Of a stretch of DNA of 54,470 nt, positions 1-21,628 are shown one piece after another. The notes under the pieces were generated by a model. It was given only the letters and a program-made list of their open reading frames with translations. It was not told where the DNA came from and searched no databases. The DNA comes from Patescibacteria group bacterium (GTDB lineage: Bacteria > Patescibacteriota > Patescibacteriia > Patescibacteriales > UBA12465). The stretch spans positions 1 to 54,470 of the forward strand of contig JBAZJK010000002.1 of the NCBI GenBank assembly GCA_041651355.1, given 5' to 3'. Position 1 is the first letter of the stretch, and every line of letters begins with the position of its first letter. The translations under genes were made by a program, and so were the position numbers.

Positions 1-2
1 TC

Positions 3-182
3 GTTTATCCCAGATTTCCGCTTCTGAGCGGTAAGTATTACCTCTCGATAGGTCTTTTAAAAAACAGAATAGCAGAGCCGGTATTTTATAAACACAGGGC
101 TTCTACGTTTCAGATGTCTTTTGCGGGCGATGACCACGGGACGGTTTATTTAGAGCACGGCTGGAAATATAAATTACCGTAA
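3..182 (+). CDS. wzt: 3' end of ABC transporter ATP-binding protein, Wzt C-terminal carbohydrate-binding domain (partial, runs off window start)
   Basis: Manual translation of frame 3: VYPRFPLLSGKYYLSIGLLKNRIAEPVFYKHRASTFQMSFAGDDHGTVYLEHGWKYKLP*. The pattern (L-x-G-x-Y-x-L-S-I-G ... F ... G-x-V-x-L-x-x-x-W near the C-terminus) matches Wzt_C, and the gene sits directly upstream of glycosyltransferases. Confidence 0.65.
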   Translation, partial: VYPRFPLLSGKYYLSIGLLKNRIAEPVFYKHRASTFQMSFAGDDHGTVYLEHGWKYKLP

Positions 183-208
183 CTATAAATTACATCCGGA
201 GGGCAGCA

Positions 209-3200
209 ATGAAGAATCGTTATCCAAAAGTTAGCATCATAACCGTAAATTTTAACGGCAGGAGATACCTCGGGGATTTTTTTAATTCCATAGCAAGGCT
301 GCGCTATCCCAAGAATAAATTAGAGATAATTTTAATTGATAACGTATCGGAAGACGGCTCGGTAGAGTTTGTGAGAAAGAGATACCCCAGGGTAAGAATA
401 ATCCAAAACGGTACTAATAACTACTGCAAAGCCGTTAACTTAGGAATAAAGGCAGCCCGTTCAGGATATATTGCGATAGCCAACAACGATACTAAATTAG
501 ACAAGGACTGGCTAGGAGAGTTGATAAGGGTCATCTCCAGCGATAAAAAGATTGCTGCGGCCGGAAGCAAGATACTGCATTGGAACGGCACATTGCAAAA
601 CGCCAGCCATTGTGAATTACCTAATTTTTACTGGGGGGAAAGGGGGGCCGGAAAGCATAGAGATAGCTATAATAATATTGATGAGGTACCCAGCTTATGC
701 GGGGCGGCAGTCTTGTATAGAAAAGAGGCTGTCTCGCGGGTCGGGTTTTTCGATGAGGATTTTGTTATATACGGAGAAGACGTAGATATATCTTTTAGGC
801 TGAGGCAGCTTGGTTATAAACTTATCTTTGTCCCCGATAGCGTTGTTTACCACAGGTTCCACGGCACAGCTACAGAGGAATTAGCGCGTTATTATATAGA
901 GAGAAACCGGCTGTTATTTTTGGCCAAACATTATCCCGAGAAGCTCACCAGTTCCTTGGTGGGCAGCGGTTATTTTACGGCAGAAGGTTCGGTTGACTCT
1001 TGCGGCAGGATATATTCTTTGTTCCCCGACATAATTATGAAGCTTATAAAGACCCACCCCCTAGACGTAGCCAGGAAGGCAATCTCAGACTTATTTGGAG
1101 AGGTAAGTAAAATTGTCAATTACGAAAACGACATATTAACGAAGGCATTGCGTAAAAACGAAGAAGAAAAAAACAAAGTAATACTCTCCCTAAAAGACGA
1201 AATTGAGCATGTCAATTATATCGTAGGGCAAAAAGAGGCCGAGGCGCGTTCTTTGAATAGCCAAATTACGGATATCGTGAAACGGAAAGAACAAGAGGCG
1301 CTTTCCTTAAAAGACGAAATTAAGCGCGTTGCTTCTCTTGCAGATCAGAAAGAATCCCAATCACAGTCCCTAAGAGACCAGTTAAAAGGCGTAAAGGATG
1401 AGCTTGAGAAGAAAACCGAAGAGGCGCTCTCTGGAGACGGACAGCTGATTGAGAAACTGGCAGAGCTCGGCGCCCTAAGAGACCAGTTAAAAGGCGTAAA
1501 GGATGAGCTTGCACGGAGAGCCGAAGAGACCCTGTCTAGGGGGGGGCAACTTATTGAAAAAGAGGCGGAAAACGGAGCGCTTAAAGATGAATTATCCCGT
1601 CTGGCGGAAAACCTTGCTGCTAGGCTGGTTAATCTGGAGGAGAATCAGGCGCAGTTGCTTGAAAAAGATTCTCGAATACAGCAATTGCAGATTGAGAAAG
1701 AAAAAATCGTTAAGGAGAAGGAACACGAACTGGATTGTTATAAAGAAGAATTGAGTAATATTCTGAATCAGTTACGCCGGAGGATGGATGAGGTCCTTAT
1801 CAAAGACAGCCAGATTATTGGAAAAGACGCGCAGATCGGGCAGCTCCGCATTGAAAAAGAACAACAGATAGGCCAGTTAAGAAGAGAGTTGGACGGAATT
1901 TATAACTCTGAAGGCTTCCGTTTAATATTGCGCCCCTTCTGGACAACTATATGGAATGCGAGGAAGGGCATCAAGGCAATGAAGATAAGATTAGGGAAGG
2001 CGATCTGGTTCGCCGTTACTTTGACCTTAGTGCCTTTATTTGTTTTTTTAGCAGCATCTTTTGTTTTTGAATATGCGGCATGGCTTATACTGAGGCCGCT
2101 GTTGAAAAATATCCTTCCCCGGAGGAGAGGCATTCAAAACAAAGACGCGGGAAAGATTAAAATAAGCGTAGTAATCCCGAATTACAATGGCACAGAGTTG
2201 CTTAAAGAATGTTTACCTTCTTTGTTTGCGGCTGAAGGGATTAATGAAGGGAAAAGCGAAGTCCTGGTAGTGGACGATGCCAGCACAGACGGTAGCGTTG
2301 CCTATATCAAGGAACACTTCCCGCAGGTAAAGCTGCTGATAAATAAGAGGAACAGGGGTTTTGGTTTCAGTTGCAACAGAGGCATTAAAGCGGCGAGCAA
2401 CGAGCTGGTGGTATTGCTGAATAATGATATTATTCTGACCAAGGGATTCCTGGAGCCTTTGGTCAGGCATTTCAAGAGGCAGGATGTGTTTGCGGCTACC
2501 CCCAAACTCTACGCCTGGGATAGAGAGACCTTTGCCTGGGGGATGCACATGGGCAATTTTAAGGACGGCTACGTAAGATTATGGAATGAGTCCGAAACAG
2601 GCAATGGCGACAGGCTGCGGCAGCCCGCACCTTCCGTATTTGCTATCGGCGGTGCGGCGGTGTTTCGCAAGTCCGATTTTATGTGGCTTGGGGGGTTTGA
2701 CAATATCTACAGACCGAACTGTTGGGAGGATATAGATATAGGTTACCGTGCCTGGAAGAGAGGGTTGAAGGTTATCTATGAACCGGGCAGCATCCTCTAT
2801 CATAAAGGACGGGCAACCCTGACCTATGAGCGCCCCAAGGAGATAAAAAACGAACTTCTTTTCACCTGGAAGAATATTACCGATAGCCGCATTTTAAAGG
2901 AACATTTTAATTTTCTTCCCTGGCACCTCTATCTTAACAGAATGAATTTCCTGAGAGGATTTTTATGGGCCTTGAACCATCTGCCTCAAACCCTACTGCA
3001 TCGCATTTTAGAAAGGAGGTTTGTCGTACATCCGCAAGATAGAAAAATTTTTAACAGCATCACGCTTTATTATAATAATTTCATAAATAGAGGCTCCCGG
3101 CATCTTAGCGAAAGCAAGCCGACGGTGCTATTGGTTTCACGGTTTCTGCCATATCCGCTTAATGCGGGCGGCAAGATAAGAATCCATAACCTAGTTAAAT

Positions 3201-5428
3201 CGCTGTCTGAAAAATATAATTTTATACTCCTCAGTCTCATTGACCATAAGGACGAATTGGCGTATATACCAAAAATCAAAGAATTGTTTAGCGAGGTTTA
3301 TACGGTATTGGCAAAATCCCCTCTGGATTTGAATTTTTCCTCACGTTTATTTTACCCGGAGTTGTATAAAATAGCCTATAGCTATAGCCGGGAGCTGGTG
3401 GAGAAGCTCAAGGAGCTTGAAGATACGAAAGCAGCGGATATTATACACATAGAAACAAATGAATTATTATACCTGGTTGACTATGTCAAGTCCGCCCCTA
3501 TAGTTTATACCGAGCACGATATAAGCATCCTTTCGCTGCGCAAATCTTATTATAAGAATAAAGGCAACCCGGCGAAGTCCTTTGTTGACCATTTAAAAAA
3601 GGTTAATTTCCACCACCGACAGATTAAAAAAACAGACAGGGTCATTAGCCTCTCAAGAGAGGATGATGCCGTGCTGAGGGGGCTTTTTCCCAAGAGCGCC
3701 ATTACCCTGATACCGACCGGGGTAGATCTGGGGCATTTTTCTTCCAGACGGTCTGCGGGAAAAATAAATAAATTGATATTCGTAGGGCACTATCTTCATT
3801 ATCCCAACGAGGACGCTGTGCTTTATTTTTCGAAGAAGATACTCCCGATCATCAAAAAAAGCGTTCCGGACGTTCAACTGCTGATTGTAGGTTCGAATCC
3901 GACGCCAGCTGTAGAGGCCATCGCCAAGGAAGACAGCGTAAGGCTTATAGGAGAGGTGCCTGATGTTAAGCCTTACCTGGAGGAAGCCGCCGTTTTTGTG
4001 AATGCCATACGCATAAGTGCGGGGATAAAAGGAAAAGTGCTGGAGGCGATGGCTTGCGGGGTGCCGGTGGTTTCTACCAGGAACGGGTCCTCCGGTATCG
4101 ATGCTAGGCCGGAAAAGGATATTCTGCTTGCGGAGAAACCGAAAGAATTCGCAAGACAGGTGATTCGCCTTTTAAGCGACCCACCCCTGAGAGAGCGGAT
4201 CGTAGCCAACGCTAAGCGCCTGGTTCAAGATAGATATGATTGGAAAGGAAGCGCGGATAAGCTCGATGGTGTATATAGGGGGCTATCATTTTTCCAAAAG
4301 GATATCTTCTCCTGTTTGTCTCAAGGTGCAACCGAAGAAGTCGTAAATTACACGAATAATTTCATTGAGCAAAAGATAGCGCAGACAGAAGGCGATCTGG
4401 GAATGGTCTCTGACGGCCCAGAAGAATTGCACATAGAATTGACATATAGCTGTAACAGCAAGTGTATTATGTGCGACCTATGGGATTATAACAAAAGAAT
4501 GCCGTCATCTCCGGGCAAGGAACTTTCTCTTGCAGAGATTAGGAAGTTCGTAGATGAATCCCGTCTCTTGCAGAAAACAAAAACCGTCGTGCTCTCTGGA
4601 GGGGAGCCGTTCATGCGAAACGATATAGCAGAGCTCTGCGGTTTTTTCACCAGAAAATTTCCAGACGGCTCAATCGGCATATTAACCAATGGAATGGCAA
4701 CCGACACGATAGTAGAAAAATCCAAGGAGGTCTTGGACAGGTTTTCTCCCAGATCTCTATGGCTGGGAAGTTCTCTGGACGGAATAGGAAAAACCCATGA
4801 TAAAATCCGGGGGGCCGACGGCGCATTTTTGCGTCTTTGCCAAACAATCAGCCGCTGCAAAAAAGAGTTGCCGGGGGTGGATTTATCGTTGACCTTTACC
4901 CTTACTCCGTATAACGTAGACCAGCTTGTGCCGGCAAAACAGTTTGCTGACGACGAAGGCGTAAATTTCTTTGCTCAATTTGTCGTTCCCAAGTCATCAA
5001 GACAGGAGTTTAACTGGACGCCCCAGGAGCTGAGTCTCGCAGAAAAAGAAATCGGACGCATAATGGAAGGGATATCCGATAAGATGGGTAACAATGCCAT
5101 CTGCGGCGTTAAAGGCATGCAGGATAAAGGGCTGATGGCTCAGCTTTATTTCTGGTCGCACCTTGTCAAATATCAGATTAACCCCCAGAGGTTTTTTAAG
5201 AAATGCGTTGCCGGTTATAGATTCGCGATGCTGAATCCTTACGGAGACTTATTTTTCTGCCCAACCCATAAAGATAATTCTGTCGGGAATCTAAGAGAGA
5301 ATAAGTTTGATTATCTCTGGACCTGCGATAAGGCGGAGCAACTAAGGAGATTTATTTCCAGCGGGAATTGCCATTGCTGGCTGGTTTGCATTCTTTTCCC
5401 GGTATTGGATAAGGTCTTGAGCAATTAA
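209..5428 (+). CDS. 1739-aa multidomain protein: GT2 - coiled coil - hydrophobic anchor - GT2 - GT4 - radical SAM/SPASM-like
   Basis: GT2 #1: VSIITVNFN, IDNVSEDGS, ANNDT, GEDVD. EKLQ-rich heptad region about nt 1130-1910 ending IYNSEGFRL. Hydrophobic stretch IWFAVTLTLVPLFVFLAASFVF. GT2 #2: ISVVIPNYNG, VDDASTDGS, LNNDI, WEDID. GT4: IPTGVD, FVGHYLHYPNEDA, KVLEAMACGVPVVST. Radical SAM: CNSKCIMC (4451-4474), GGEP, C-terminal Cys cluster. GGAGG RBS upstream. Confidence 0.9.
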   Translation: MKNRYPKVSIITVNFNGRRYLGDFFNSIARLRYPKNKLEIILIDNVSEDGSVEFVRKRYPRVRIIQNGTNNYCKAVNLGIKAARSGYIAIANNDTKLDKDWLGELIRVISSDKKIAAAGSKILHWNGTLQNASHCELPNFYWGERGAGKHRDSYNNIDEVPSLCGAAVLYRKEAVSRVGFFDEDFVIYGEDVDISFRLRQLGYKLIFVPDSVVYHRFHGTATEELARYYIERNRLLFLAKHYPEKLTSSLVGSGYFTAEGSVDSCGRIYSLFPDIIMKLIKTHPLDVARKAISDLFGEVSKIVNYENDILTKALRKNEEEKNKVILSLKDEIEHVNYIVGQKEAEARSLNSQITDIVKRKEQEALSLKDEIKRVASLADQKESQSQSLRDQLKGVKDELEKKTEEALSGDGQLIEKLAELGALRDQLKGVKDELARRAEETLSRGGQLIEKEAENGALKDELSRLAENLAARLVNLEENQAQLLEKDSRIQQLQIEKEKIVKEKEHELDCYKEELSNILNQLRRRMDEVLIKDSQIIGKDAQIGQLRIEKEQQIGQLRRELDGIYNSEGFRLILRPFWTTIWNARKGIKAMKIRLGKAIWFAVTLTLVPLFVFLAASFVFEYAAWLILRPLLKNILPRRRGIQNKDAGKIKISVVIPNYNGTELLKECLPSLFAAEGINEGKSEVLVVDDASTDGSVAYIKEHFPQVKLLINKRNRGFGFSCNRGIKAASNELVVLLNNDIILTKGFLEPLVRHFKRQDVFAATPKLYAWDRETFAWGMHMGNFKDGYVRLWNESETGNGDRLRQPAPSVFAIGGAAVFRKSDFMWLGGFDNIYRPNCWEDIDIGYRAWKRGLKVIYEPGSILYHKGRATLTYERPKEIKNELLFTWKNITDSRILKEHFNFLPWHLYLNRMNFLRGFLWALNHLPQTLLHRILERRFVVHPQDRKIFNSITLYYNNFINRGSRHLSESKPTVLLVSRFLPYPLNAGGKIRIHNLVKSLSEKYNFILLSLIDHKDELAYIPKIKELFSEVYTVLAKSPLDLNFSSRLFYPELYKIAYSYSRELVEKLKELEDTKAADIIHIETNELLYLVDYVKSAPIVYTEHDISILSLRKSYYKNKGNPAKSFVDHLKKVNFHHRQIKKTDRVISLSREDDAVLRGLFPKSAITLIPTGVDLGHFSSRRSAGKINKLIFVGHYLHYPNEDAVLYFSKKILPIIKKSVPDVQLLIVGSNPTPAVEAIAKEDSVRLIGEVPDVKPYLEEAAVFVNAIRISAGIKGKVLEAMACGVPVVSTRNGSSGIDARPEKDILLAEKPKEFARQVIRLLSDPPLRERIVANAKRLVQDRYDWKGSADKLDGVYRGLSFFQKDIFSCLSQGATEEVVNYTNNFIEQKIAQTEGDLGMVSDGPEELHIELTYSCNSKCIMCDLWDYNKRMPSSPGKELSLAEIRKFVDESRLLQKTKTVVLSGGEPFMRNDIAELCGFFTRKFPDGSIGILTNGMATDTIVEKSKEVLDRFSPRSLWLGSSLDGIGKTHDKIRGADGAFLRLCQTISRCKKELPGVDLSLTFTLTPYNVDQLVPAKQFADDEGVNFFAQFVVPKSSRQEFNWTPQELSLAEKEIGRIMEGISDKMGNNAICGVKGMQDKGLMAQLYFWSHLVKYQINPQRFFKKCVAGYRFAMLNPYGDLFFCPTHKDNSVGNLRENKFDYLWTCDKAEQLRRFISSGNCHCWLVCILFPVLDKVLSN
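1368..1511 (+). repeat. 39-bp exact direct repeat (1368-1406 and 1473-1511) inside the coiled coil, spacing 105 nt = 35 aa
   Basis: ccctaagagaccagttaaaaggcgtaaaggatgagcttg occurs twice (LRDQLKGVKDEL). A looser SLKDEI repeat lies at about 1185 and 1302. Confidence 0.9.
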
Positions 5429-5439
5429 TCCTTAAGGAT

Positions 5440-6603
5440 ATGGTTGAAGCCCAAGAAAAGAGATCAAAGCGGATTGCGGAGCTTAAGCGGAATATCATAA
5501 ACACCGCAACCAAAAGAGCGCAGGAGGCATCCTATCCTATCGCCGCCCGCAATAAAAATTTGCTTCTGAATGACTTTGAATATGCAACAGGCAAGATAGC
5601 CCTAGAGTCTTCTCCCGAGGGTATCGGTATAGGGACGCATTACGCCTGCAATGGGAAATGCGTTTTTTGTTTAGGCGGAAAACCCCGGATTTTCTCGCTT
5701 GAGAGATATAGGGAATTTTTTGAGCCGAGACTGGAAAACGTTTTATCAAGAGCAAGCTATGTGAGCTTCTGCGGTTTCGGAGAGTTGTTTTTAATGCCGC
5801 GGGTAGAGGAATTCATGGATTATGTAAATAAAAAAATTCCATGGGCTAATAAGATATATACTACAAACGGAGCGCCTTTAGCCAATGATAAGATATTAAA
5901 TTTACTTACCCAGAGCCAATCCGCAGTGCAGATATCTCTTCACGCCTCTCATAGAGAGCTCCACAGGGCCTTGACGAAATTAGACTCCTTTGACGAGATT
6001 GTAGCCAGAATAAGACAAATAATCTCTATGCGTAAGTCAAAAGAGCGCCCCAGCGTGATTCTGGTTTTTCTTATCAACAGCCTGAATGTGGAGAATCTTG
6101 CGGATTTTGTGGAGTTTGCCCATCGCCTGAGGGTAGACGAGGTGCGATGTAATTATATGACGGCATTCCATCACTCCCAGCTAAAGCTTTCATGTTTCTT
6201 TAAACAAGAGTTAACCAACCGGAGCCTGGAGGAGGCCGAAGAACGCGCTGCTAAGTTGGATTTGATTTTGAAACTGCCTCCGAGATTCGGCCGGGGTAGT
6301 CAAGGAACAGGGAGCCTCCTGTGCGCCGAACCCTGGAAATACATCTATGTGGAGAATGAATCTTCGGTCCTGCCGTGTTGTTATGCAGGCAGTCACTTCG
6401 GCTATTTGGACAGGATGGACTTTCAGACTATCTGGAACGGCTCAAGTTATAGGCAGTTGCGCAAGTCCTTGGTAGAGGGGCCGCCCCATAAATGGTGCAA
6501 ACATTGCCAGAGATACCGCGCAGAAAATATAAACGACATCCGTTCGCACATAAACTTCCGCCCCGGAGGGCTTTTAAAGATCTTGAAAGGGTATAAATTA
6601 TGA
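5440..6603 (+). CDS. Radical SAM/SPASM-domain protein (module A)
   Basis: CNGKCVFC, GFGE, TTNG, SLHAS. C-terminal CAEPW...PCC...IWNG...CKHC. Confidence 0.9.
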   Translation: MVEAQEKRSKRIAELKRNIINTATKRAQEASYPIAARNKNLLLNDFEYATGKIALESSPEGIGIGTHYACNGKCVFCLGGKPRIFSLERYREFFEPRLENVLSRASYVSFCGFGELFLMPRVEEFMDYVNKKIPWANKIYTTNGAPLANDKILNLLTQSQSAVQISLHASHRELHRALTKLDSFDEIVARIRQIISMRKSKERPSVILVFLINSLNVENLADFVEFAHRLRVDEVRCNYMTAFHHSQLKLSCFFKQELTNRSLEEAEERAAKLDLILKLPPRFGRGSQGTGSLLCAEPWKYIYVENESSVLPCCYAGSHFGYLDRMDFQTIWNGSSYRQLRKSLVEGPPHKWCKHCQRYRAENINDIRSHINFRPGGLLKILKGYKL

Positions 6604-9287
6604 AAGTTGCTCTTGTGCAATGCCCGGGCTGGGGCAGGGATTGCCCTCCTTATACGCTGGCGCTTTTTGCAGCATATCTGCGTCAAAATGAACATCGTGT
6701 TTTCAGTTACGATATCAATAACGCACTTTATTGTAGCGGACCTGACAAGTACAGGAGGATGTGGGATGACAAGGATCTCTATTCCTTTTGGAGCAACAAG
6801 TCCCTCATTACAGAGTTTATCCGGGACAACGAGAGGATGGTGGAATTTCAAGTAAAACATATTTTAGACAGCGGCGCCAAAATCATCGGTTTTAGCGTTC
6901 AGTTTAGTTCTCTGCTTGTCAGTTTAGAGGTAGCTCGCAGGATTAAGGCTAAATCCAGGGATAGAATTATTGTTTTTGGAGGTCCGGACTGCTGCCGCCA
7001 TTTACGGGGCTCAGAGATAATAAAAGAGGATTGCGTAGATGTCGTAGCGCTTGGCGAAGGAGACACAACATTATTAGAGTTAGTGAATATGGTAGAACTG
7101 GACGGCAAGGTAGAAAATTGCCCGGGCGCCTTACTTAAAAAAGAAGGGAAGATTTTTGATTGCGGCGACGGGATTGCAGTGAGAGATCTTGATCTTATCC
7201 CCTTTCCAGATTATAGCGATTTCAGAAAAGATATTATGGCCGGTCATTATCGTCAGCCCGAACGCCTAGAGATATTTGACAGCCGGGGATGCATTACTCG
7301 TTGCCATTTCTGCAGCGAATGGCAGTTTTGGCAAAATTATCGTTCCATGAGCGGAGAGAGAATATTCGAAGAGGTTGCTTATCAGATAAGGCGTTTTCCC
7401 GGAACGGAATATTTTTATTTTATCGGTTCACTCTTAAACGGGAATATAAAATCATTAAACAGGTTTTGTGATTTGGTAATACAGAATAGTCTGGTGGTAA
7501 GATGGGCCGGTCAGGCGGTAATAAGGCCAGAGATGAGCGCGGAACTTTTAGGAAAAATGAGAAAGGCCGGTTGCGAATGGTTGGGATATGGCATTGAAAG
7601 CGGCTCGCAGAGAGTAGTGGACAGCATGAATAAGCACTTCTTTATTGCGGATGCCGAAAGGGTATTAAGGGATACCCATCAGGCAGGGATTGGCACCCAG
7701 GTTAATTTTATGTTCGGCATTCCCACTGAGACATTGGAAGATTTTAAGGAAACACTGGAATTCCTTAAAAGAAACAGGGAGAACATTGATTCGGTTCTAG
7801 CAAGCCAATCGTTCTGCGTTTTAGACAAAGGCACATACCTTTACAACCATGCCGAGGAATTCGGCATCAGGAATCCCGATCATCATCTGTATTGGGAGAC
7901 AGACGGCAACGATTATCCGGAGAGATTCAGAAGGTATGAGGAATTTTGTAGTCTAGCCCTGTCTTTGGGGCTTCCGGAGACATCGGGCGTACTAAGGTTG
8001 AAACCCGACAAATGGGCGCTCTTGGGGGATTATTACCTTTTCAAGAAAGACTATCCCATGGCCAAAGAGTGCTTTCTTAAATCTATGGAAAGAGAATCCA
8101 GCAACAATACGGTCTCTGCGAAATTAGAGCTATGCGTCAAAGATCCGGAGGGAGCTCCTGGCGCTGCCCAGCGGGCTGAACTGCAGATCTACCCGGCAGA
8201 AGTTGCCGGAGAGCTTAGCGGGATGCAACAGAAAATCAGGGATGCGCTTAGTCGCTTTGGCCTGGCGGGGAAATTACGCAACTTCCTTGCAATGGAAAAA
8301 GAGAAACAGGAGCGCAGGGAAGAATTGGAATCCCATCCTTACTGGTTGACCATTGATCCCGCAAATTTTTGCACCCTTAGGTGCCCTTTTTGCCCTACCG
8401 GACAGAATCGCGGCTCTAGGGAAAAAACCAAGCTTTCCTTCGATAGTTTTGAAAAGATAATAGATGAGCTAGGCCCGTATTTAATCCATATAGATTTCTG
8501 CAACTGGGGGGAGCCCCTTTTGAATAAAGACATCTATAAGATGATAAGATGCGCCAAGGGGTATGGTATCGACACAAAGATAGACTCAAACCTTAACGTT
8601 TTCAGCGAAGAGGACGCCGAGGACATCGTATCATCGGGGCTGGATAAGATAATCGTCTCGATTGACGGGGCAACTCAGGGGTCATATTCGAAATACAGGA
8701 TAGGAGGGGATTTTAACGTCGCGTTAAATAACCTCAGGTTATTGATTGAGAAAAAAAGAGAGCTCCGCAAAGCAAATCCGTATATCTGCTGGCAGTTTCT
8801 TGTCTTCAGGCACAATGAGCACGAGACCGAAAAAGCGAAATCCATAGGCAGGGACCTGGGGGTTGACGACGTATCGATCACCAAGGCGTTTATCGGTAAT
8901 AAAGATTGGATACCACTTAATGAGCACTACAGTCATTACAAAAATAGCGAGATTGGCGATGACCAGTATACCTCCGGCTATTTCAAGTCTGCCAACGAAG
9001 AATTCTGTAATTGGCCGTGGGAAGCAATAGTAATAAATTCCAACGGATCCGTTTCGCCATGCTGTTCTGTTGAAGACGAAAAATACGATTTCGCAAACAT
9101 ACTGAAGCAGCCGTTTAAAGAACTCTGGAATAACGAAAAGTATATCAGGGCAAGAAGGTTTATCGGCAAGAGAGGCGGATGCGGTAGAGATAACGCAAAT
9201 ATATGCCACGGATGCAGGCACTCAGGACTAATCAATATAGATATACTTTCTTGCCACTCGTTATTTAATCGCGATGATAATAAATAA
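6600..9287 (+). CDS. Cobalamin-binding radical SAM fused via a TPR-like linker to a second radical SAM/SPASM domain (modules E+D)
   Basis: N-terminal B12-binding-type region (MKVALVQCPGWG...PP, GFSV, FGGP, GEGD). CITRCHFC at 7290-7313, GIESGS. TPR-like WALLGDYYLFKKDYPMAKECFLKSME. Second motif CTLRCPFC at 8370-8393, NWGEP, CNWPW...PCC...CHGC. Confidence 0.9.
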   Translation: MKVALVQCPGWGRDCPPYTLALFAAYLRQNEHRVFSYDINNALYCSGPDKYRRMWDDKDLYSFWSNKSLITEFIRDNERMVEFQVKHILDSGAKIIGFSVQFSSLLVSLEVARRIKAKSRDRIIVFGGPDCCRHLRGSEIIKEDCVDVVALGEGDTTLLELVNMVELDGKVENCPGALLKKEGKIFDCGDGIAVRDLDLIPFPDYSDFRKDIMAGHYRQPERLEIFDSRGCITRCHFCSEWQFWQNYRSMSGERIFEEVAYQIRRFPGTEYFYFIGSLLNGNIKSLNRFCDLVIQNSLVVRWAGQAVIRPEMSAELLGKMRKAGCEWLGYGIESGSQRVVDSMNKHFFIADAERVLRDTHQAGIGTQVNFMFGIPTETLEDFKETLEFLKRNRENIDSVLASQSFCVLDKGTYLYNHAEEFGIRNPDHHLYWETDGNDYPERFRRYEEFCSLALSLGLPETSGVLRLKPDKWALLGDYYLFKKDYPMAKECFLKSMERESSNNTVSAKLELCVKDPEGAPGAAQRAELQIYPAEVAGELSGMQQKIRDALSRFGLAGKLRNFLAMEKEKQERREELESHPYWLTIDPANFCTLRCPFCPTGQNRGSREKTKLSFDSFEKIIDELGPYLIHIDFCNWGEPLLNKDIYKMIRCAKGYGIDTKIDSNLNVFSEEDAEDIVSSGLDKIIVSIDGATQGSYSKYRIGGDFNVALNNLRLLIEKKRELRKANPYICWQFLVFRHNEHETEKAKSIGRDLGVDDVSITKAFIGNKDWIPLNEHYSHYKNSEIGDDQYTSGYFKSANEEFCNWPWEAIVINSNGSVSPCCSVEDEKYDFANILKQPFKELWNNEKYIRARRFIGKRGGCGRDNANICHGCRHSGLINIDILSCHSLFNRDDNK

Positions 9288-9338
9288 AGGACACGCCGTT
9301 TATCTAAATAACCCCGGTTTTGATACAGAAGCAATATT

Positions 9339-12113
9339 ATGAAAATCGCACTTATTCAATGCCCGGTATGGGGCACCTATGATCCGCCGCTCGCCTTAGC
9401 CCAGCTTTCCGCCTGTCTGAAGAAAGACGGACATGAGATATGCGCTCTGGATTTGAATATCGAGCTATATCTTAGCCGCCAGGAAAATTATAAGAATACC
9501 TGGGCCTGGGAACAATCTCTTTTTTGGTACAATCAGGAGTGCGTATCAAAATTTCTTGCCGATAACAAAGACACAATAAATAAATACGTAGAACAGATTG
9601 TTGACGGCGGATATGGCGTGGTTTGTTTTTCTGTAACGGCAGCTTCAAAACTGTCCAGTCTGGAATTAGCGCGGTCAATCAAGAAACGCAACAAGGGTAT
9701 CATTATAATATTCGGAGGTACCCTATTTTTTGACAGGAATTTTATAAAAGTAATATTAAGCGACGCATCCGTAGATATCGTAGCATGCGGAGAAGGAGAA
9801 GTAACATTATCTGAATTGGCAAGGCTCATAGAAAATAAAGAACACTTAGATGCCTGCCGCGGGATAGCTTTTAAAAATAAAGGCATACGGGTTAACCCCG
9901 AACGGCCTTTAATCGGAGATTTGGATGATCTACCGTTTCTGGATTTTTCCCAATTGCCGCTATCCAACTATGACGATAAAGGCCACGTCGCATTTCTATC
10001 CAGTCGCGGTTGTTGGCAACAATGCGTATTCTGCAGTTCCCGGACATTCTGGGCCGGCTACCGCAGGATGAGCGCTAAGAGGATTTTTGATGAAATACAC
10101 TTCCACTATAAAAATAATGACGAGGTTAGGCATATTGACTTCTTGGATTTGATGTTTAACGGAGATATAGAAGAGCTTAATTCATTCTGCGACCTGATGA
10201 TTGGTTCTGAGTTAAAGGGGAGGATATGTTGGGCAGCTAATGCTATTATCAGGCCCGAGATGACCCCTGCGTTATTAAACAAGATGAAGGCGGCAGGCTG
10301 TAAGCATCTCATCTATGGCATCGAATCAGGGTCGCAGAAGGTATTGAATTTAATGAAAAAACGATACAGGATAGAAGATGCCGATATCGTAATCAAGGCT
10401 ACCCATGAGGCCGGCATAGTAGTGACCGCTAATTTTATGTTTGGTTTCCCCGGAGAGAGCGAAGAAGATTTCGGGCAGACGCTTGGTTTTCTCAAGAGAA
10501 ATGCCAGGTATCTGGATAGGGCTTATCCCAGCCGCACCTTTTGCGCCCTGGAGGAAGACAGTTATTTACACGCGCATTTAGAAGAATTCGGTATCAAGCC
10601 CAATCCGCCCAATCATTTATATTGGGAGTCGCTCGACAGCCAAAATACCTACCCCGAGCGACTGAGGCGATGCGAGGAATTCTGCAATCTCGCATCTTCC
10701 TTGGGGATCGAAGTAGCCAGCGGCGTACAGACATCCGTAGAGCTAGACCGCTGGTTTAATCTGCTGCATTACTACGAACAGAAAAAAGACATAAAGAACA
10801 TGCTTCAGTGCTGCCTGAACTATTATAAATCAGAGCCCGATAACGAGTTCGTTGTGGGAAAAATTGAAAAATATTTTTATGGATTACAAGAAGAAGAAAG
10901 AGAAAAAATTCTCGGAGCGAGGTTATTCTCCGAATTGCAGATAGTTGTCAATAAGATAGGCTCCAAATGTTCTGCCCTCGCCTTAGTGTCAAATCAACAG
11001 GTAGAAAAGATTGGCAGAGAAAAAAGCTTTGCTTTAGCGATAGCCGAACAGCGGGACAATAAACAGCTCACCGAGACGGAATATCATAATAATGAGAGTA
11101 GCCTTAATTCCTGGCCAAGGGTTTTGTTCATTCAAGCCTCCGGACCATGCAATTCAAGTTGCGTATTTTGCTCCCGCGGCGATAATTACAAGATGTTTGA
11201 CTTGGAGGAATTTAAGAAAGGTTTTGTTGAAAATTTCTACTTTTTGTTTTATATAGCGGAAAAGATTGTTTTAACGGGTTCAGGCGAATTTCTTCTTTTG
11301 CCCGAGGCAGAAAAAATATTGGATTATTTCGATGAAAATTTTCCGCATATAGAGAAGATGTTTGCGACCAACGGCTCGGGTCTCCTCCCCAGCATAGCTA
11401 AAAAAATCGTAGATAGTAAAAGCAGGTATACAATTCATTTTTCTTTACACGCTTCCAATCACAAGCTGCACAAAACCCTTACCCGGATGGATAATTTTTA
11501 TAAGATATTAGGTCAATTGAAGTATTTACTTGATATCAGGAAAGACAAGGAGAGGCCAGCCGTCCACCTTACCTTTGTAGCTACAACCTTGAACATCGAG
11601 GACCTTCCTAACTTCGTCAGGTTGGCTTCCAACCTGGGAGTCGATAAGGTCGTATGTTATTATAACTATATATATGTACCTGCCCAGAAGTATCTCTCAT
11701 GTTTTTTTAAACAGGATATTACCAACAGCGTGCTGGATGAAGCCGAAGATTTAGCAAGGAGTCTAAAGGTACAACTTGAGCTCCCCCCCAGGTTTAAACA
11801 GAAGGAATATCCCAAATTAGATATCTGCCGCGAGCCGTGGACGCAGGTAATGTTTGATATCGACGGTAATGTTTTGCCATGTGATGCCTCGGAAGACTTC
11901 CGAGGCAATCTCAAAAATGCCAAACATTTCCATGAGATTTGGAACGGGCAGCATTACCGCAGGTTAAGGGAGTCTTTAATTAATGGCACCAGCGATTGTT
12001 TTAAGTATTGTTTTAGGGCAAATCCGGCGGCGGTTAATGATTTTCGCTCCCATGTCATACGTAGAGGCAGGGAGGCGTCAGAAATAGATGTTTATTGGGG
12101 GGATAACTTTTAG
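9339..12113 (+). CDS. Cobalamin-binding radical SAM fused to a second radical SAM/SPASM domain (modules E+A)
   Basis: MKIALIQCPVWG...PP, FGGT, GEGE. SRGCWQQCVFC at 10011-10034, GIESGS. Second motif CNSSCVFC at 11148-11171, SLHAS, LSCFF, LPPRF, CREPW. Confidence 0.9.
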   Translation: MKIALIQCPVWGTYDPPLALAQLSACLKKDGHEICALDLNIELYLSRQENYKNTWAWEQSLFWYNQECVSKFLADNKDTINKYVEQIVDGGYGVVCFSVTAASKLSSLELARSIKKRNKGIIIIFGGTLFFDRNFIKVILSDASVDIVACGEGEVTLSELARLIENKEHLDACRGIAFKNKGIRVNPERPLIGDLDDLPFLDFSQLPLSNYDDKGHVAFLSSRGCWQQCVFCSSRTFWAGYRRMSAKRIFDEIHFHYKNNDEVRHIDFLDLMFNGDIEELNSFCDLMIGSELKGRICWAANAIIRPEMTPALLNKMKAAGCKHLIYGIESGSQKVLNLMKKRYRIEDADIVIKATHEAGIVVTANFMFGFPGESEEDFGQTLGFLKRNARYLDRAYPSRTFCALEEDSYLHAHLEEFGIKPNPPNHLYWESLDSQNTYPERLRRCEEFCNLASSLGIEVASGVQTSVELDRWFNLLHYYEQKKDIKNMLQCCLNYYKSEPDNEFVVGKIEKYFYGLQEEEREKILGARLFSELQIVVNKIGSKCSALALVSNQQVEKIGREKSFALAIAEQRDNKQLTETEYHNNESSLNSWPRVLFIQASGPCNSSCVFCSRGDNYKMFDLEEFKKGFVENFYFLFYIAEKIVLTGSGEFLLLPEAEKILDYFDENFPHIEKMFATNGSGLLPSIAKKIVDSKSRYTIHFSLHASNHKLHKTLTRMDNFYKILGQLKYLLDIRKDKERPAVHLTFVATTLNIEDLPNFVRLASNLGVDKVVCYYNYIYVPAQKYLSCFFKQDITNSVLDEAEDLARSLKVQLELPPRFKQKEYPKLDICREPWTQVMFDIDGNVLPCDASEDFRGNLKNAKHFHEIWNGQHYRRLRESLINGTSDCFKYCFRANPAAVNDFRSHVIRRGREASEIDVYWGDNF

Positions 12114-12940
12114 TGGTCGAAAATAGCGTTCCTTTACGGTTTACCTGGGATATCCATTATAAGTGCAATTTCCGCTGTCCTTACTGCTGGTTTTATAAAA
12201 AATGGATAAGCGAAGGCAGGCGGTATCTTCTTCTTTCCCCCGACGAATGGCTTAAGCACTGGTTAAAGGTTCGCAATCGCTATGGAGAAGCAGATATCGC
12301 TATTACCGGCGGGGAACCGTTTCTTTATCCGAATTTTATCGAGATAATAAAAATACTGTCTTTGATACACAGGATAAAGATTACCACGAATATGTCAGGT
12401 GATATCGATACCTTTGTTAAGCAGATAGCCCCCAGCAGAGTAACGTTAGACCTGAATTTCCATCCGCTCTTTTCTGAAATAGGAAGTTTTATAGAAAAGA
12501 CCCTTCTTTTAAAAAAGGCGGGTTTCCGGGCCGGCGTATGTTATTTGGCCTATCCTCCTCAAATGGGGCAGATAGATATTTTTAGAAGGCGTTTTGAGGA
12601 AGCGGGGATTAACTTTGCCCTTGCCGCTTTCTGGGGTGAATTTGAAGGCAAGAGATACCCGCAGAGCTACACTCCACAGGAGTTGGATTTTATACGTCCG
12701 TTTTTAGGAGACATCGACAGGATTGTTTATCATCTGGGCGCCGAAACCCCCCGCGGAAAACTCTGCAATGCGGGGTATACCTACGCAATTGTTCAAGGGG
12801 ATGGTTATGTAGTAAGATGCGGTCAGTTAGCAGATAAGTTCATAGGAAATATTACGGATGAAGATTTTAATCTCTTTGATTCGCCAAAGGCCTGCGAAGC
12901 GGAGTTTTGCCCGTGCAATGAATACGTTAATTTAATCTAA
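12113..12940 (+). CDS. Compact radical SAM protein with short C-terminal Cys domain (module B)
   Basis: GTG start overlaps the upstream TAG. FTWDIHYKCNFRCPYC, GGEPF, TTN, YPP, C-terminal C...RC...CEAEFCPC. Confidence 0.88.
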   Translation: MVENSVPLRFTWDIHYKCNFRCPYCWFYKKWISEGRRYLLLSPDEWLKHWLKVRNRYGEADIAITGGEPFLYPNFIEIIKILSLIHRIKITTNMSGDIDTFVKQIAPSRVTLDLNFHPLFSEIGSFIEKTLLLKKAGFRAGVCYLAYPPQMGQIDIFRRRFEEAGINFALAAFWGEFEGKRYPQSYTPQELDFIRPFLGDIDRIVYHLGAETPRGKLCNAGYTYAIVQGDGYVVRCGQLADKFIGNITDEDFNLFDSPKACEAEFCPCNEYVNLI

Positions 12941-17431: not shown

Positions 17432-18649
17432 ATGAAACGGCATAGTAACCCAGGAAATAAATTCTTGGTTATCAAGACAGTATCGGGTTATGTATTAAAA
17501 GGGTTTATTAGCGCAGCAGTTTTTTTAATAATTTTAGAAGCGGCACTGCAGATAACCGGGACAGCATATCTAAGATTAAAATATACAATTAAAAACCCGG
17601 AAGCGCTAAAGGACGATTCTTTACGCATAATGTTTATAGGGGATTCCTGGACGCAGGGGGCTGACGCAGCCCCGGGGCCGGGATATGTAATGCTGGTGAC
17701 GCAAGAATTGAACCGCCTTTACCCTGTTAAAAGCATCCAGGTATATAATTTTGCCTTAGGCAGCACGAATTCATCGCAGGCAATACATCAGTTTTTAGAC
17801 AACTATCGCAATATAAAACCCGATATATTGGTGGTTTTGACAGGGGCAAATAACGGATGGAATACCCAAGATATTATAACCGCCCGCAAGCGCATTAGAA
17901 ACGGGATAATTAATTATAATGAGCTGGAAAACACTAGTTTTGCCGAACAGTCCGCCAACTTTTTTAAAAAATTGAAGATCGCAAAGTTATATAACTTGAT
18001 TTCGTACAATATATTTTATAAATCCCAGGAAATCAAGATTCCCCTGCCCGACAATGAATACCTTCTTGGTTACCATAAAATTTTTAATGCTACCAGGGAT
18101 CCAGAAAAAGCAAGATTATATTTAATAAATAACTATAAGGAAAATACGACTGATTACAATGATCTTTATAAAGCAACGCGGCATTCCTTTGGAGGCGACA
18201 TAGAAAAAACCTTAAATTATTTAAAAAATAAAAACATGCTCAAACTTAATTTGATTAGCGAGAAAATAGATATAAAGAAGGATAGAACCAGTCGGTCTCT
18301 TCATTTGAAAATCCTGGAAGAGAATCTGACGGATTTGAAAGACCTGTGCGACCAGGAAGGCATAATAATGGTTGTAGAGAATTATCCTTATAATAGTATG
18401 CAGTTTAGAGCTGTCAACGATGCCCTCGGCAGAATATCTTCAAGGATAAATGCAGTCTATGTAAATCATTACGGGTATTTCAAGGATAAAGTTGGCTATG
18501 AAGAATGGGATAAGGTTATGACTAAGTCGCACGTTAATTATAAAGGTCACGAGTATATGGCGGACAATCTGGTTGAGATATTGAGCGCTGCTATTGCTAC
18601 TCAAGAGAGAAGCAAAAAAGATAGGGAGAATATGAATTCTGAAAAATGA
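17432..18649 (+). CDS. Membrane-anchored SGNH/GDSL-family protein (putative esterase or O-acyltransferase)
   Basis: N-terminal TM segment. Block I FIGDSW, block II NFALGS, block III TGANN, block V TKSHVNYKGH. Confidence 0.8.
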   Translation: MKRHSNPGNKFLVIKTVSGYVLKGFISAAVFLIILEAALQITGTAYLRLKYTIKNPEALKDDSLRIMFIGDSWTQGADAAPGPGYVMLVTQELNRLYPVKSIQVYNFALGSTNSSQAIHQFLDNYRNIKPDILVVLTGANNGWNTQDIITARKRIRNGIINYNELENTSFAEQSANFFKKLKIAKLYNLISYNIFYKSQEIKIPLPDNEYLLGYHKIFNATRDPEKARLYLINNYKENTTDYNDLYKATRHSFGGDIEKTLNYLKNKNMLKLNLISEKIDIKKDRTSRSLHLKILEENLTDLKDLCDQEGIIMVVENYPYNSMQFRAVNDALGRISSRINAVYVNHYGYFKDKVGYEEWDKVMTKSHVNYKGHEYMADNLVEILSAAIATQERSKKDRENMNSEK

Positions 18650-20542: not shown

Positions 20543-21628
20543 ATGAGGTCCGGGCAATCAGAAAACAAGGCGCTTAACGAAAAAGAATATGTTGCCCGAA
20601 AAGACATTCTGCAATCCGGTCCTAGCAACATAATTTTATGCTCAACTTATAAATGTAATATGAGTTGTATTTTTTGCTTGGGGAGAGGTCAAGACCCCGA
20701 TTTCAACTGCGATATTTATAAAAAAATTTTCGAAAATAAATTACGCCGGTTTTTAGAAAATGCTACGGATATCTGTTTTACGGGATGGGGAGAATTCCTA
20801 TTATGGCCCGGGGCAGCGGACTTCTTAGGTTATCTTAACGAGCATTTCCCCGAAGCAAACAAGATTCTTACCACTAACGGCACCCCCTTGTCGGAAGCCA
20901 TGGCGAGCAAGATGATAATCGGAAATTATACGGTACAGGTCTCCTTACATACATCTGATGCGCTTATCCATAGGTCGCTTACGCAGTCTGATTTTTTTGA
21001 GCAGATTGTCATGAATCTGGACAATTTGATTCTGCTAAGAAACGAGAACAGTTGCCATTCAAAATTATGGATAGTCTTGATGTTCCTTGTAACCTCATTA
21101 AATATTGAAAATTTACCTGATTTTGTGGATTTTGCAGGATTGCGCGGGGTAAACGAGGTATTTTGTAACTATATAACTATTTTTTTGCCTGAGCAGATTG
21201 GGTTGTCATGTTTTTTCTCGCCCCAGAACACTAACCGGATATTTGATGAAGCGCAAAAGAGGGCTCAAAGATATAATATGCGTTTAAATCTGCCTCCTCG
21301 GTTTGGCCTAACAGACGGCATGCAGCGAGAAAGCGTATGCCAAGACCCCTGGAACACTGTTTTTATAGACGGGTTAGGGAATATCCACCCCTGCTGTTTT
21401 TCCGGCAGACCTATAGGCAATATTAACATGGATGATTTTGGGGCGATATGGAATGGAGAAAATTACAGGGAATTGCGCAATTGTTTAACCGAGAATAGGT
21501 CACATGAAAGATGTAAAAATTGCTATAAGTTTTCTCCGGTAAACGTTAACGATATAAAGTCACACGTTACCTTTCGCGACATTCGCGCCAAAGAAGATAT
21601 TTTTAGAAGATTAAACCTAGAAGCTTAA
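20543..21628 (+). CDS. Radical SAM/SPASM-domain protein (module A)
   Basis: CNMSCIFC, GWGE, TTNG, SLHTS, LSCFF, LPPRFG, CQDPW...PCC...CKNC. Confidence 0.9.
   Translation: MRSGQSENKALNEKEYVARKDILQSGPSNIILCSTYKCNMSCIFCLGRGQDPDFNCDIYKKIFENKLRRFLENATDICFTGWGEFLLWPGAADFLGYLNEHFPEANKILTTNGTPLSEAMASKMIIGNYTVQVSLHTSDALIHRSLTQSDFFEQIVMNLDNLILLRNENSCHSKLWIVLMFLVTSLNIENLPDFVDFAGLRGVNEVFCNYITIFLPEQIGLSCFFSPQNTNRIFDEAQKRAQRYNMRLNLPPRFGLTDGMQRESVCQDPWNTVFIDGLGNIHPCCFSGRPIGNINMDDFGAIWNGENYRELRNCLTENRSHERCKNCYKFSPVNVNDIKSHVTFRDIRAKEDIFRRLNLEA

Follow-up and report, generated by a model that had tools for sequence, protein, structure and literature searches.

Two adjacent genes of an Omnitrophota surface-glycan locus each join a cobalamin-type to a twitch-type radical SAM module

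Introduction

What chemistry could be performed by two neighboring genes that each encode two complete radical S-adenosylmethionine (SAM) domains in a single polypeptide, the first preceded by a cobalamin-binding-type domain and the second followed by a Cys-rich one? The question is raised by contig JBAZJK010000002.1 of assembly GCA_041651355.1, deposited as Patescibacteria group bacterium, whose 54,470 nucleotides were analysed as a whole and will be referred to as the window. An initial annotation had described the two genes, starting at positions 6600 and 9339, as adjacent fusions of a B12 radical SAM enzyme with a radical SAM/SPASM enzyme, and had proposed a coupled oxidation and methylation of one substrate. 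The pairing of two radical SAM modules proves to be real and widespread among related proteins, and the window is Omnitrophota DNA that was mis-binned into a Patescibacteria metagenome-assembled genome. The reading that we prefer, at a probability of roughly 0.55, is that each gene supplies two autonomous radical modules which would carry out consecutive steps on the sugars of a surface glycan exported by the Wzm/Wzt pathway. The evidence for this reading comes from the anatomy of the proteins, from the way in which their halves are joined and separated among relatives, and from the genes that surround them.

Results

Architecture of the fusion genes

The first gene (6600 to 9287) encodes P0001, of 895 residues, and the second (9339 to 12113) encodes P0002, of 924 residues; both reading frames run without interruption, and they lie on the + strand, as do all window features given below. 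Each protein yields a B12-binding match, two Radical_SAM stretches and SPASM matches in Pfam, which is the architecture that had been assigned to them. The four radical SAM cores, scored separately in a genome-wide Pfam scan, reach 67.7, 56.1, 69.6 and 38.6 bits against PF04055 (cut-off 29.5), and all four contain a complete CX3CX2C motif, which places every one of these domains in the radical SAM superfamily and bears out the two SAM-cleaving motifs per polypeptide that had been noticed at the outset. In P0001 the motifs are formed by C231/235/238 (7290 to 7313) and C591/595/598 (8370 to 8393, within a 56.1-bit match over 8358 to 8756), and both are kept in 52/52 aligned family members. In P0002 they comprise C225/229/232 (10011 to 10034, present in 56/56 sequences) and C604/608/611 (11148 to 11171, intact, within a 38.6-bit match over 11148 to 11624). 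The B12-binding family PF02310 scores 28.5 bits in P0001 and 33.7 bits in P0002 against a cut-off of 32.1; the former rises to 33.5 bits when scored together with its in-frame neighbors, a borderline case on Pfam alone.

From the N- to the C-terminus, the order of parts is a Rossmann domain, a radical SAM barrel, a helical cap, a tetratricopeptide repeat (TPR), a linker, a short helical cap, a second radical SAM core and a Cys-rich domain. The Rossmann domain of P0001, of B12-binding type and with FGGP and GEGD strands, spans residues 1-200 (6600 to 7199) and is recognized by PF02310, by profile comparison and by Foldseek. The TPR-like helix pair that had been placed after the N-terminal half stands as one TPR motif: a profile search matches residues 472-516 of P0001 to consensus TPR proteins, and the AlphaFold2 (AF2) model has helices at residues 471-481, 485-498 and 504-514 (the repeat, residues 471-514, is encoded at 8010 to 8141). 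The corresponding stretch of P0002 is a TPR/helical region.

The two N-terminal halves, named N1 in P0001 and N2 in P0002, are paralogs with 41.6% identity across some 510 residues, and share the motifs MKxALxQCPxWG, HLYWE and YPERxRRxEEFC from which their kinship had first been read. Their C-terminal halves fall in separate paralog groups, module D in P0001 and module A in P0002, again in agreement with the initial annotation: module D has 30.5% identity to the C-terminal half of the open reading frame (ORF) at 18646, and module A has 37.9% and 36.5% identity to the ORFs at 20543 and 5440, respectively.

AF2 models built on alignments of 52 (P0001) and 56 (P0002) sequences reach a mean predicted local distance difference test (pLDDT) of 88.5 and 86.2. 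The sole disordered internal segment of each, with pLDDT below 50, is the linker between the halves, at residues 515-536 of P0001 (8142 to 8207) and 544-561 of P0002 (10968 to 11021). These linkers are also the least conserved regions (majority fraction 0.31 and 0.28, respectively). Most insertions and deletions fall there, among them 82 inserted columns in the P0001 alignment. The majority fractions of the two catalytic halves are 0.67-0.76 and 0.65-0.72, a sign of similar purifying selection on both.

N-terminal halves and cobalamin radical SAM enzymes

The best Foldseek matches of the N-terminal halves are cobalamin radical SAM enzymes, namely CysS, OxsB, MgmA (template modelling score, TM, 0.71), TsrM and TokK. 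When a profile was built from stand-alone N-halves, its alignments to OxsB (E 1e-17), MgmA (6e-17), TokK (5e-11) and CysS ran through the Rossmann domain, and the FGGP and GEGE strands line up with those of MgmA, whose structure 9CCB represents the glutamine C-methyltransferase (QCMT) of methyl-coenzyme M reductase (PMC12931638). With a Rossmann PF02310 domain ahead of the radical SAM core, the N-halves have the domain layout of predicted class B enzymes. They share with MgmA, TokK, CysS, TsrM and OxsB a Rossmann domain followed by a radical SAM barrel with CX3CX2C, and they differ from these solved proteins in their low identity (13-19%), an added helical segment behind strand 2, a TPR at the C-terminus, four extra Cys, and in being fused or adjacent to a second radical SAM enzyme; binding of cobalamin by the N-halves is a prediction.

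The four extra Cys are conserved in both N-half families, as C290, C325, C406 and C450 of P0001 (codons 7467-7469, 7572-7574, 7815-7817 and 7947-7949) and their P0002 equivalents. Two are invariant and two occur in at least 90% of sequences; C290 and C325 fall within the MgmA alignment, where MgmA has other residues. A further metal site at these positions is possible. A MiaB/RimO-like N-terminal auxiliary cluster was considered and rejected, as both Rossmann domains share C8 only and no conserved set of three Cys.

C-terminal halves and their twitch domain

The second domain had been described as a BtrN-type SPASM domain with auxiliary clusters. The likeness to BtrN stands: in sequence, the twitch region of the C-half matches BtrN (E 5e-7) and 129 residues of its core match BlsE (E 7e-6), and the fold of the C-halves matches BlsE, BtrN, SuiB, SkfB, DesII and viperin (Foldseek). 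The sequence matches are local, and full-length similarity to BtrN or BlsE was not found, so these are not orthologs. The Cys of P0001 at 803, 821, 869 and 872 (9006 to 9215), all invariant, align one-to-one with positions 169, 187, 232 and 235 of BtrN chain 4m7s, which we take to be the ligands of BtrN's single auxiliary cluster.

The plural clusters of the original description have to be given up. The seven-Cys SPASM motif (CX9-15GX4C - gap - CX2CX5CX3C - gap - C) is incomplete in both proteins: its first element is present (C803-X12-G-X4-C821 in P0001), and of the second only CX2C is left in P0001 and CX3C in P0002. The arrangement in P0002 is C830-X17-C848 and C887-X3-C891 (11826 to 12011), found in 56/56, 56/56, 51/56 and 56/56 sequences, respectively. 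The twitch-domain family NF033640 matches P0001 at 800-857 and 829-885, and PF13186 (SPASM) still matches although just four Cys are invariant. The auxiliary domain is thus predicted to be a BtrN-type twitch with one auxiliary cluster and not a full SPASM domain; given only four invariant Cys, aligned to those of BtrN, three Fe-S clusters are expected per protein instead of four or five.

BtrN, the 2-deoxy-scyllo-inosamine dehydrogenase of butirosin biosynthesis and archetypal twitch enzyme, resembles the P0001 C-half in its compact radical SAM core followed by a four-Cys domain, and BlsE, a cytosylglucuronate decarboxylase, aligns over the core; both act on carbohydrates. Unlike them, the P0001 C-half has an additional N-terminal helical cap and the additional conserved C822 and C885, and the P0002 C-half has CX3C where BtrN has CX2C. 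At least 90% of relatives have C822 and C885 (9063-9065 and 9252-9254); two more Cys do not suffice for a complete second SPASM cluster.

Joining and separation of the halves among relatives

Relatives were retrieved with a word-index search covering 5.8 billion proteins and an exhaustive search covering 1.8 billion representatives. The word-index search yielded upwards of 80 full-length relatives of P0001 (48-84% identity) and upwards of 90 of P0002, from NCBI, JGI, ENA and Logan assemblies; pooled and clustered, the full-length representatives with two motifs each number 83 for N1+D and 68 for N2+A, more than 150 in all, which confirms the recurrence of the architecture that the initial annotation had wanted checked. 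N1 is joined to D in 92 of the retrieved proteins, N2 to A in 101, and N1 to A in 6. Partner choice therefore appears nearly fixed in these sequences, N1 with D and N2 with A, and from this, by the Rosetta-stone argument, both members of a pair would be expected to act on one substrate.

In other relatives the halves lie apart. In GCA_043808095.1 (contig L009), the P0001 ortholog is split into a 518-residue N1 gene and a 365-residue D gene about 1 kb away; the latter has 65% identity to P0001 residues 532-890, the split falls in the disordered linker, and an intact 924-residue P0002 ortholog follows. Between the split N1 and D genes, L009:12115-12516 holds a 133-residue ORF with no Pfam match, which may have been left over or inserted at the point of fission. 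The retrieved set further contains 97 stand-alone N proteins, and the stand-alone N-halves, of 517-608 residues, are scattered over a tree of 224 N-halves that implies 21 changes between the alone and fused states by parsimony, at least 12 of them forced by well-supported branches.

The linker of P0002 is also a point of insertion. Six relatives of about 1200 residues (P0146, P0152, P0154, P0157, P0158 and P0174) carry a further radical SAM module, module B, at that position in the order N2-B-A, and the module B gene of the window (12113 to 12940) has 40-43% identity to the middle module of those six; in P0235, module B sits at the N-terminus. There are in addition three giant relatives (P0241, P0242 and P0250): one of 2331 residues with 5 Radical_SAM, 3 B12-binding and SPASM matches, one of 2096 residues with 4 + 4 matches, and one of 2689 residues with a family 2 glycosyltransferase (GT2), TPR, a class I methyltransferase, 2 B12 domains, 3 radical SAM domains and SPASM. 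The halves look like autonomous catalytic beads that have been joined and separated repeatedly, not like one co-evolved two-site center. An obligate two-site machine is not supported: the halves also occur as separate genes, the tree forces at least 12 changes, and relatives carry module B at the linker. That one substrate is both oxidized and methylated remains a reasonable hypothesis.

Glycan context of the locus

The window is a single co-directional gene array. It begins inside wzt, of which it retains the 3' end (3 to 179; the last 59 residues of an ABC-exporter ATPase with Wzt_C, where tblastn with Wzt of related contigs L010 and L015 gives 64% and 100% identity), and the full gene is found on an 81-kb ENA contig that carries the same locus. 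There follow a 1739-residue fusion of GT2, GT2, GT4 and radical SAM/SPASM (209 to 5428), a putative glycan polymerase whose domains were identified by Pfam and which is placed directly upstream in L009, L010 and L097 as well, and a 387-residue radical SAM/SPASM protein (5440 to 6603), a paralog of module A whose stop overlaps the start of P0001 and whose position is kept in L010 and L014. After these come the two fusions, and then a compact 275-residue radical SAM protein, the module B gene already mentioned, whose start overlaps the stop of P0002.

On the 81-kb contig, the genes upstream are, in order, housekeeping genes, a GT4, a PF00953 polyprenyl-phosphate sugar transferase, a flavoprotein, Wzm, and Wzt with Wzt_C. 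The order Wzm-Wzt-polymerase-radical SAM genes is kept in four independent contigs, and the set taken to define a Wzm/Wzt pathway (sugar transferase, Wzm, Wzt with Wzt_C and multidomain glycosyltransferase polymerase) was found in L015, L014, L010, L009 and L097. Downstream lie more radical SAM genes, GT9, GT2, GT4, PMT_2, a family 5 glycoside hydrolase (GH5), a class III aminotransferase and two more B12 radical SAM genes, as well as genes for SGNH-TPR and YfhO-like proteins and for a split transketolase. Of the matches in the 1.07-Mb bin, 18 out of 27 to PF04055 and all 4 to PF02310 lie in the window.

Two further features of this context were observed. The flavoprotein directly upstream of wzm in L010 and L015 (L015:8674-9987; 437 residues, Amino_oxidase/NAD_binding_8) could be a UDP (uridine diphosphate)-galactopyranose-mutase-like or sugar-oxidizing enzyme of the same pathway. 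In L097 (GCA_028707125.1), the ATPase and Wzt_C parts of Wzt are encoded as two proteins, and N2 is a stand-alone protein of 524 residues.

Host assignment and corrinoid supply

The entire contig analysed here belongs to Omnitrophota. The RpoB of the bin, on another contig, has 85-87% identity to records named 'Patescibacteria group bacterium', and no full-length relative of the fusions was found in the 260 related genomes searched (36 of the same family, 24 others of the same order and 200 of the same phylum). The 81,335-bp ENA contig carries the same two ORFs, of 895 and 924 residues, and does not differ from the window at any of the 8,476 bases that were compared (window 1-8476); the continuation of the window DNA on that contig is not present in the Patescibacteria bin. 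An M20 peptidase on the same contig was deposited as Candidatus Omnitrophota, and all named homologs of this peptidase and of the fusions are Candidatus Omnitrophota. GC content and tetranucleotide composition do not separate the window contig from the rest of the bin.

Because of this mis-binning, inferences from the window's 'own genome' are unsafe: BtuC, BtuF, CobS, EcfT and TonB-dependent receptor families were not found in the Patescibacteria bin, and this result is uninformative for the cobalamin supply of the fusions. The Omnitrophota genome GCA_028707125.1, which carries the orthologous locus L097, has a 108-bit cobalamin riboswitch (G261:C1:1132411-1132597) and a BtuC-type permease some 9 kb from it, and a supply of corrinoid in the Omnitrophota lineage is plausible.

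Discussion

Proposed mechanism

From the anatomy, motifs, partnering and genomic context observed above we infer how the cofactors are loaded, which two reactions take place, in what order and on what substrate. Each gene would encode a 'beads-on-a-string' bifunctional radical SAM enzyme, in which an autonomous class-B-like module (N-half) is tied by a flexible linker to an autonomous BtrN/BlsE-like module (C-half). Every polypeptide would hold three [4Fe-4S] clusters and probably one cobalamin, and would cleave SAM at two separate active sites. In the N-half, one SAM would make methylcobalamin and a second the 5'-deoxyadenosyl radical, after which the methyl group would pass from methylcobalamin to a carbon radical on the sugar. 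The C-half would take a hydrogen from a ring or carbinol C-H; the electron might then go to the auxiliary cluster with formation of a ketone, as in BtrN, or the hydrogen might be returned on the other face (epimerization), or a decarboxylation might follow, as in BlsE. The substrate would be a lipid-linked polymer or its precursor in the Wzm/Wzt surface-glycan pathway of an Omnitrophota bacterium.

A more specific version is tentative and, in our opinion, rather doubtful: that the modules are docked through their TPR at the polymerase or the exporter, and iteratively C-methylate and oxidize or epimerize the lipid-linked polysaccharide before Wzm/Wzt export. If true, such a TPR-docked tailoring line would be the carbohydrate counterpart of polytheonamide-type maturation, a glycan chemistry not yet described.

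Alternative explanations

Several observations weigh against the reading of consecutive steps on an exported glycan, and they are taken here together with the alternatives to which they lend themselves. The alternative we take most seriously, doubtful as it is, holds that the N-half is not a cobalamin methylase; it would be a B12-free diol-dehydratase similar to AprD4, or would perform a B12 rearrangement or cyclization (HpnJ-, OxsB- or BchE-like) on the sugar, with the C-half supplying or consuming a neighboring intermediate. Radical SAM enzymes of the B12 type also perform ring contractions, cyclizations and other non-methylating reactions. AprD4 (6fd2), which we take to be a sugar 1,2-diol dehydratase with the same N-terminal fold and no bound cobalamin, matches the models as well as MgmA does (TM 0.70-0.72 and 0.71, respectively). 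The profile search puts OxsB first, and the four family-specific Cys that MgmA lacks hint at a departure from the solved methylases. Among NCBIfam families, the N-halves match TIGR03975, ApyD, HpnJ, BchE, MgmA, PhpK and KedN5, all far below the cut-offs, so that P0001 and P0002, judged by these scores, appear to belong to no curated family and show no orthology to a characterized enzyme. The list mixes methylases (TIGR03975, MgmA, PhpK, KedN5) with non-methylases: HpnJ (TIGR03471, 105-118 bits) and BchE rank high among the families, and OxsB is also one of the best matches.

Against this alternative, the sequence alignment of AprD4 is confined to the radical SAM core (227-389, profile search), whereas OxsB, TokK, CysS and MgmA align through the Rossmann domain. 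The best curated family is moreover a C-methyltransferase, TIGR03975, with 139.6 bits for P0001 and 152.7 bits for P0002 (cut-off 281.85, which keeps both out of that family of C-methyltransferases of RiPPs, peptides made on the ribosome and modified after translation), and PhpK, MgmA and KedN5 also score. The cobalamin riboswitch in a genome with the orthologous locus likewise speaks for a B12-dependent N-half.

It is unlikely, in second place, that the fusions are maturases of a peptide or protein, either RiPP-like or a surface or S-layer protein, in which B12 radical SAM C-methylation and twitch radical SAM cross-linking or epimerization would take place on amino-acid residues, the glycan genes being mere neighbors or glycosylating the same protein. 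Most characterized SPASM/twitch enzymes do work on peptides or proteins, the best NCBIfam families of the N-halves (TIGR03975, ApyD) are RiPP enzymes, and the C-halves match PqqE, StsB, WgkB, SuiB and SkfB. A 44-kb radical SAM cluster of Omnitrophota, which may be the same kind of locus, was called a RiPP cluster (ranthipeptide, 28% average amino-acid identity) by genome-mining software (PMC12016038). Nonetheless, all these family scores lie far below their cut-offs, and no credible precursor ORF was found in the window, which is 98.7% coding, with overlapping stops and starts in the operon, 697 non-coding bases and a largest gap of 140 bp: a search of the gaps for RiPP precursors gave just spurious-looking ORFs of 20-38 residues, and the two window ORFs with no Pfam match encode membrane proteins and not Cys- or repeat-rich substrates. 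The covalent fusion of a radical SAM domain to the GT2-GT2-GT4 polymerase, the gene order kept in the four independent contigs, and the fact that, among solved structures, module D is closest in sequence to BtrN and BlsE, which act on sugars, all favor a glycan over a peptide.

A distinctly unlikely alternative concerns the P0002 C-half alone, which might be mainly non-catalytic and serve in substrate binding, as a scaffold, or as an electron relay through its auxiliary cluster. The second CX3CX2C of the P0002 family is kept in 45-47 of 56 sequences and lost in about 20% of relatives; 11 of the 56 lack one to three of its Cys, whereas the twitch C830, C848 and C891 are kept in 56/56. On the tree of 224 N-halves, the loss covers 19 rows and at least 4 independent events, and SAM cleavage by module A appears, from these alignments, dispensable in some lineages. 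A packing of the two halves against each other is suggested by the predicted TM score (pTM) of 0.84 for the P0002 model; in the P0001 model (pTM 0.61), the predicted mutual placement of the halves is uncertain, and it is better defined in P0002. In the window itself, by contrast, the CNSSCVFC and GSGE (GGE-like) motifs of P0002 are intact and the core passes the Pfam cut-off (38.6 bits); some 80% of relatives keep the CX3CX2C motif, and there are stand-alone module A genes that have it as well. The relatives that have lost the second motif and kept the twitch Cys and domain look like a recurrent pseudo-radical-SAM state.

A role in lipid tailoring, with a polyprenyl carrier, a lipid that spans the membrane or the head group of a glycolipid as the substrate, in the manner of Hbs/Hgm or calditol synthase, is very improbable. 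It has a precedent in archaea, where the neighboring Hbs (a twitch/SPASM radical SAM enzyme) and Hgm (a B12 radical SAM methylase) form an adjoining pair acting on the same lipid, H-GDGT (a glycerol dialkyl glycerol tetraether), and homologs of Hbs have been found in Omnitrophota (10.1101/2023.10.20.563219). The fusions also match GDGT-MAS (7tol) and the lipid B12 radical SAM family TIGR04072, but weakly (E 0.002-0.006, and 69-70 bits where the cut-off is 360); the window has no annotated Tes-, Mss- or Grs-like or lipid-synthesis gene, and the context is a complete set for glycan initiation, polymerization and export.

Finally, the mis-binned contig and the split genes of relatives might make one suspect an assembly or gene-calling artefact, the chimera that the initial annotation had named as its own refutation, but this can practically be dismissed, since mis-binning affects the bin and not continuity within the contig, the uninterrupted ORFs recur on the independent 81-kb contig, whose DNA is identical over the 8,476 bases compared, and the 83 N1+D and 68 N2+A representatives stem from several sources of assemblies.

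Comparison with known systems

Each domain of the fusions is of a known kind; what is new is the dedicated pairing of a B12 radical SAM module with a twitch radical SAM module in a glycan export operon. Two radical SAM domains in one polypeptide are known from FbiC, the F0 synthase, a fusion of CofG and CofH that are separate proteins elsewhere and catalyze consecutive steps in one pathway. FbiC shares with the fusions two complete radical SAM domains in one chain, and differs in that it is not homologous to them, lacks cobalamin and twitch domains, and belongs to a cofactor pathway. It was the only protein with two radical SAM domains that a literature search for multi-radical-SAM proteins returned, and the search gave no paper on the present fusion or on radical SAM arrays in Wzm/Wzt loci. 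A conceptual precedent is the Hbs/Hgm pair, which differs from the fusions by its separate genes, its lipid substrate and the lack of detectable orthology.

For the iterative tailoring of a polymer, a parallel is PoyB/PoyC/PoyD, in which B12 radical SAM C-methylases and a radical SAM epimerase iteratively tailor the proteusin polytheonamide. TIGR03975, the top NCBIfam family of the N-halves, is of this kind. The polymer there is a ribosomal peptide, whereas the fusion locus has no precursor gene and lies in a context of polysaccharide assembly and export.

For the methylation of a sugar carbon, cobalamin radical SAM enzymes such as GenD1 and GenK offer a functional analogy to the N-half (PMC4340712). 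GenD1 had also been invoked as the precedent for a coupled oxidation-methylation, and in this it fails: it only methylates, at C-4'', the oxidation of C-3'' being due to a separate enzyme, GenD2 (PMC4340712). Unlike the fusions, GenD1 has one radical SAM domain and performs no oxidation.

Conclusions

Modules of the B12 type and of the twitch type, each fused or adjacent to its dedicated partner, lie inside a conserved operon for polysaccharide assembly and export that holds 18 radical SAM domains. To our knowledge, sugar-modifying radical SAM enzymes have been described almost exclusively in antibiotic pathways, where they work on small molecules. If the preferred reading is true, the fusions would be natural radical SAM proteins of two or three modules in which the loading and reduction of clusters and cobalamin could be studied within one chain, and the split, fused and second-cluster-lost variants found among their relatives would serve as ready-made controls for enzymology. 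They would, furthermore, reveal undescribed radical chemistry on the surface glycans of a widespread and mostly uncultured phylum.

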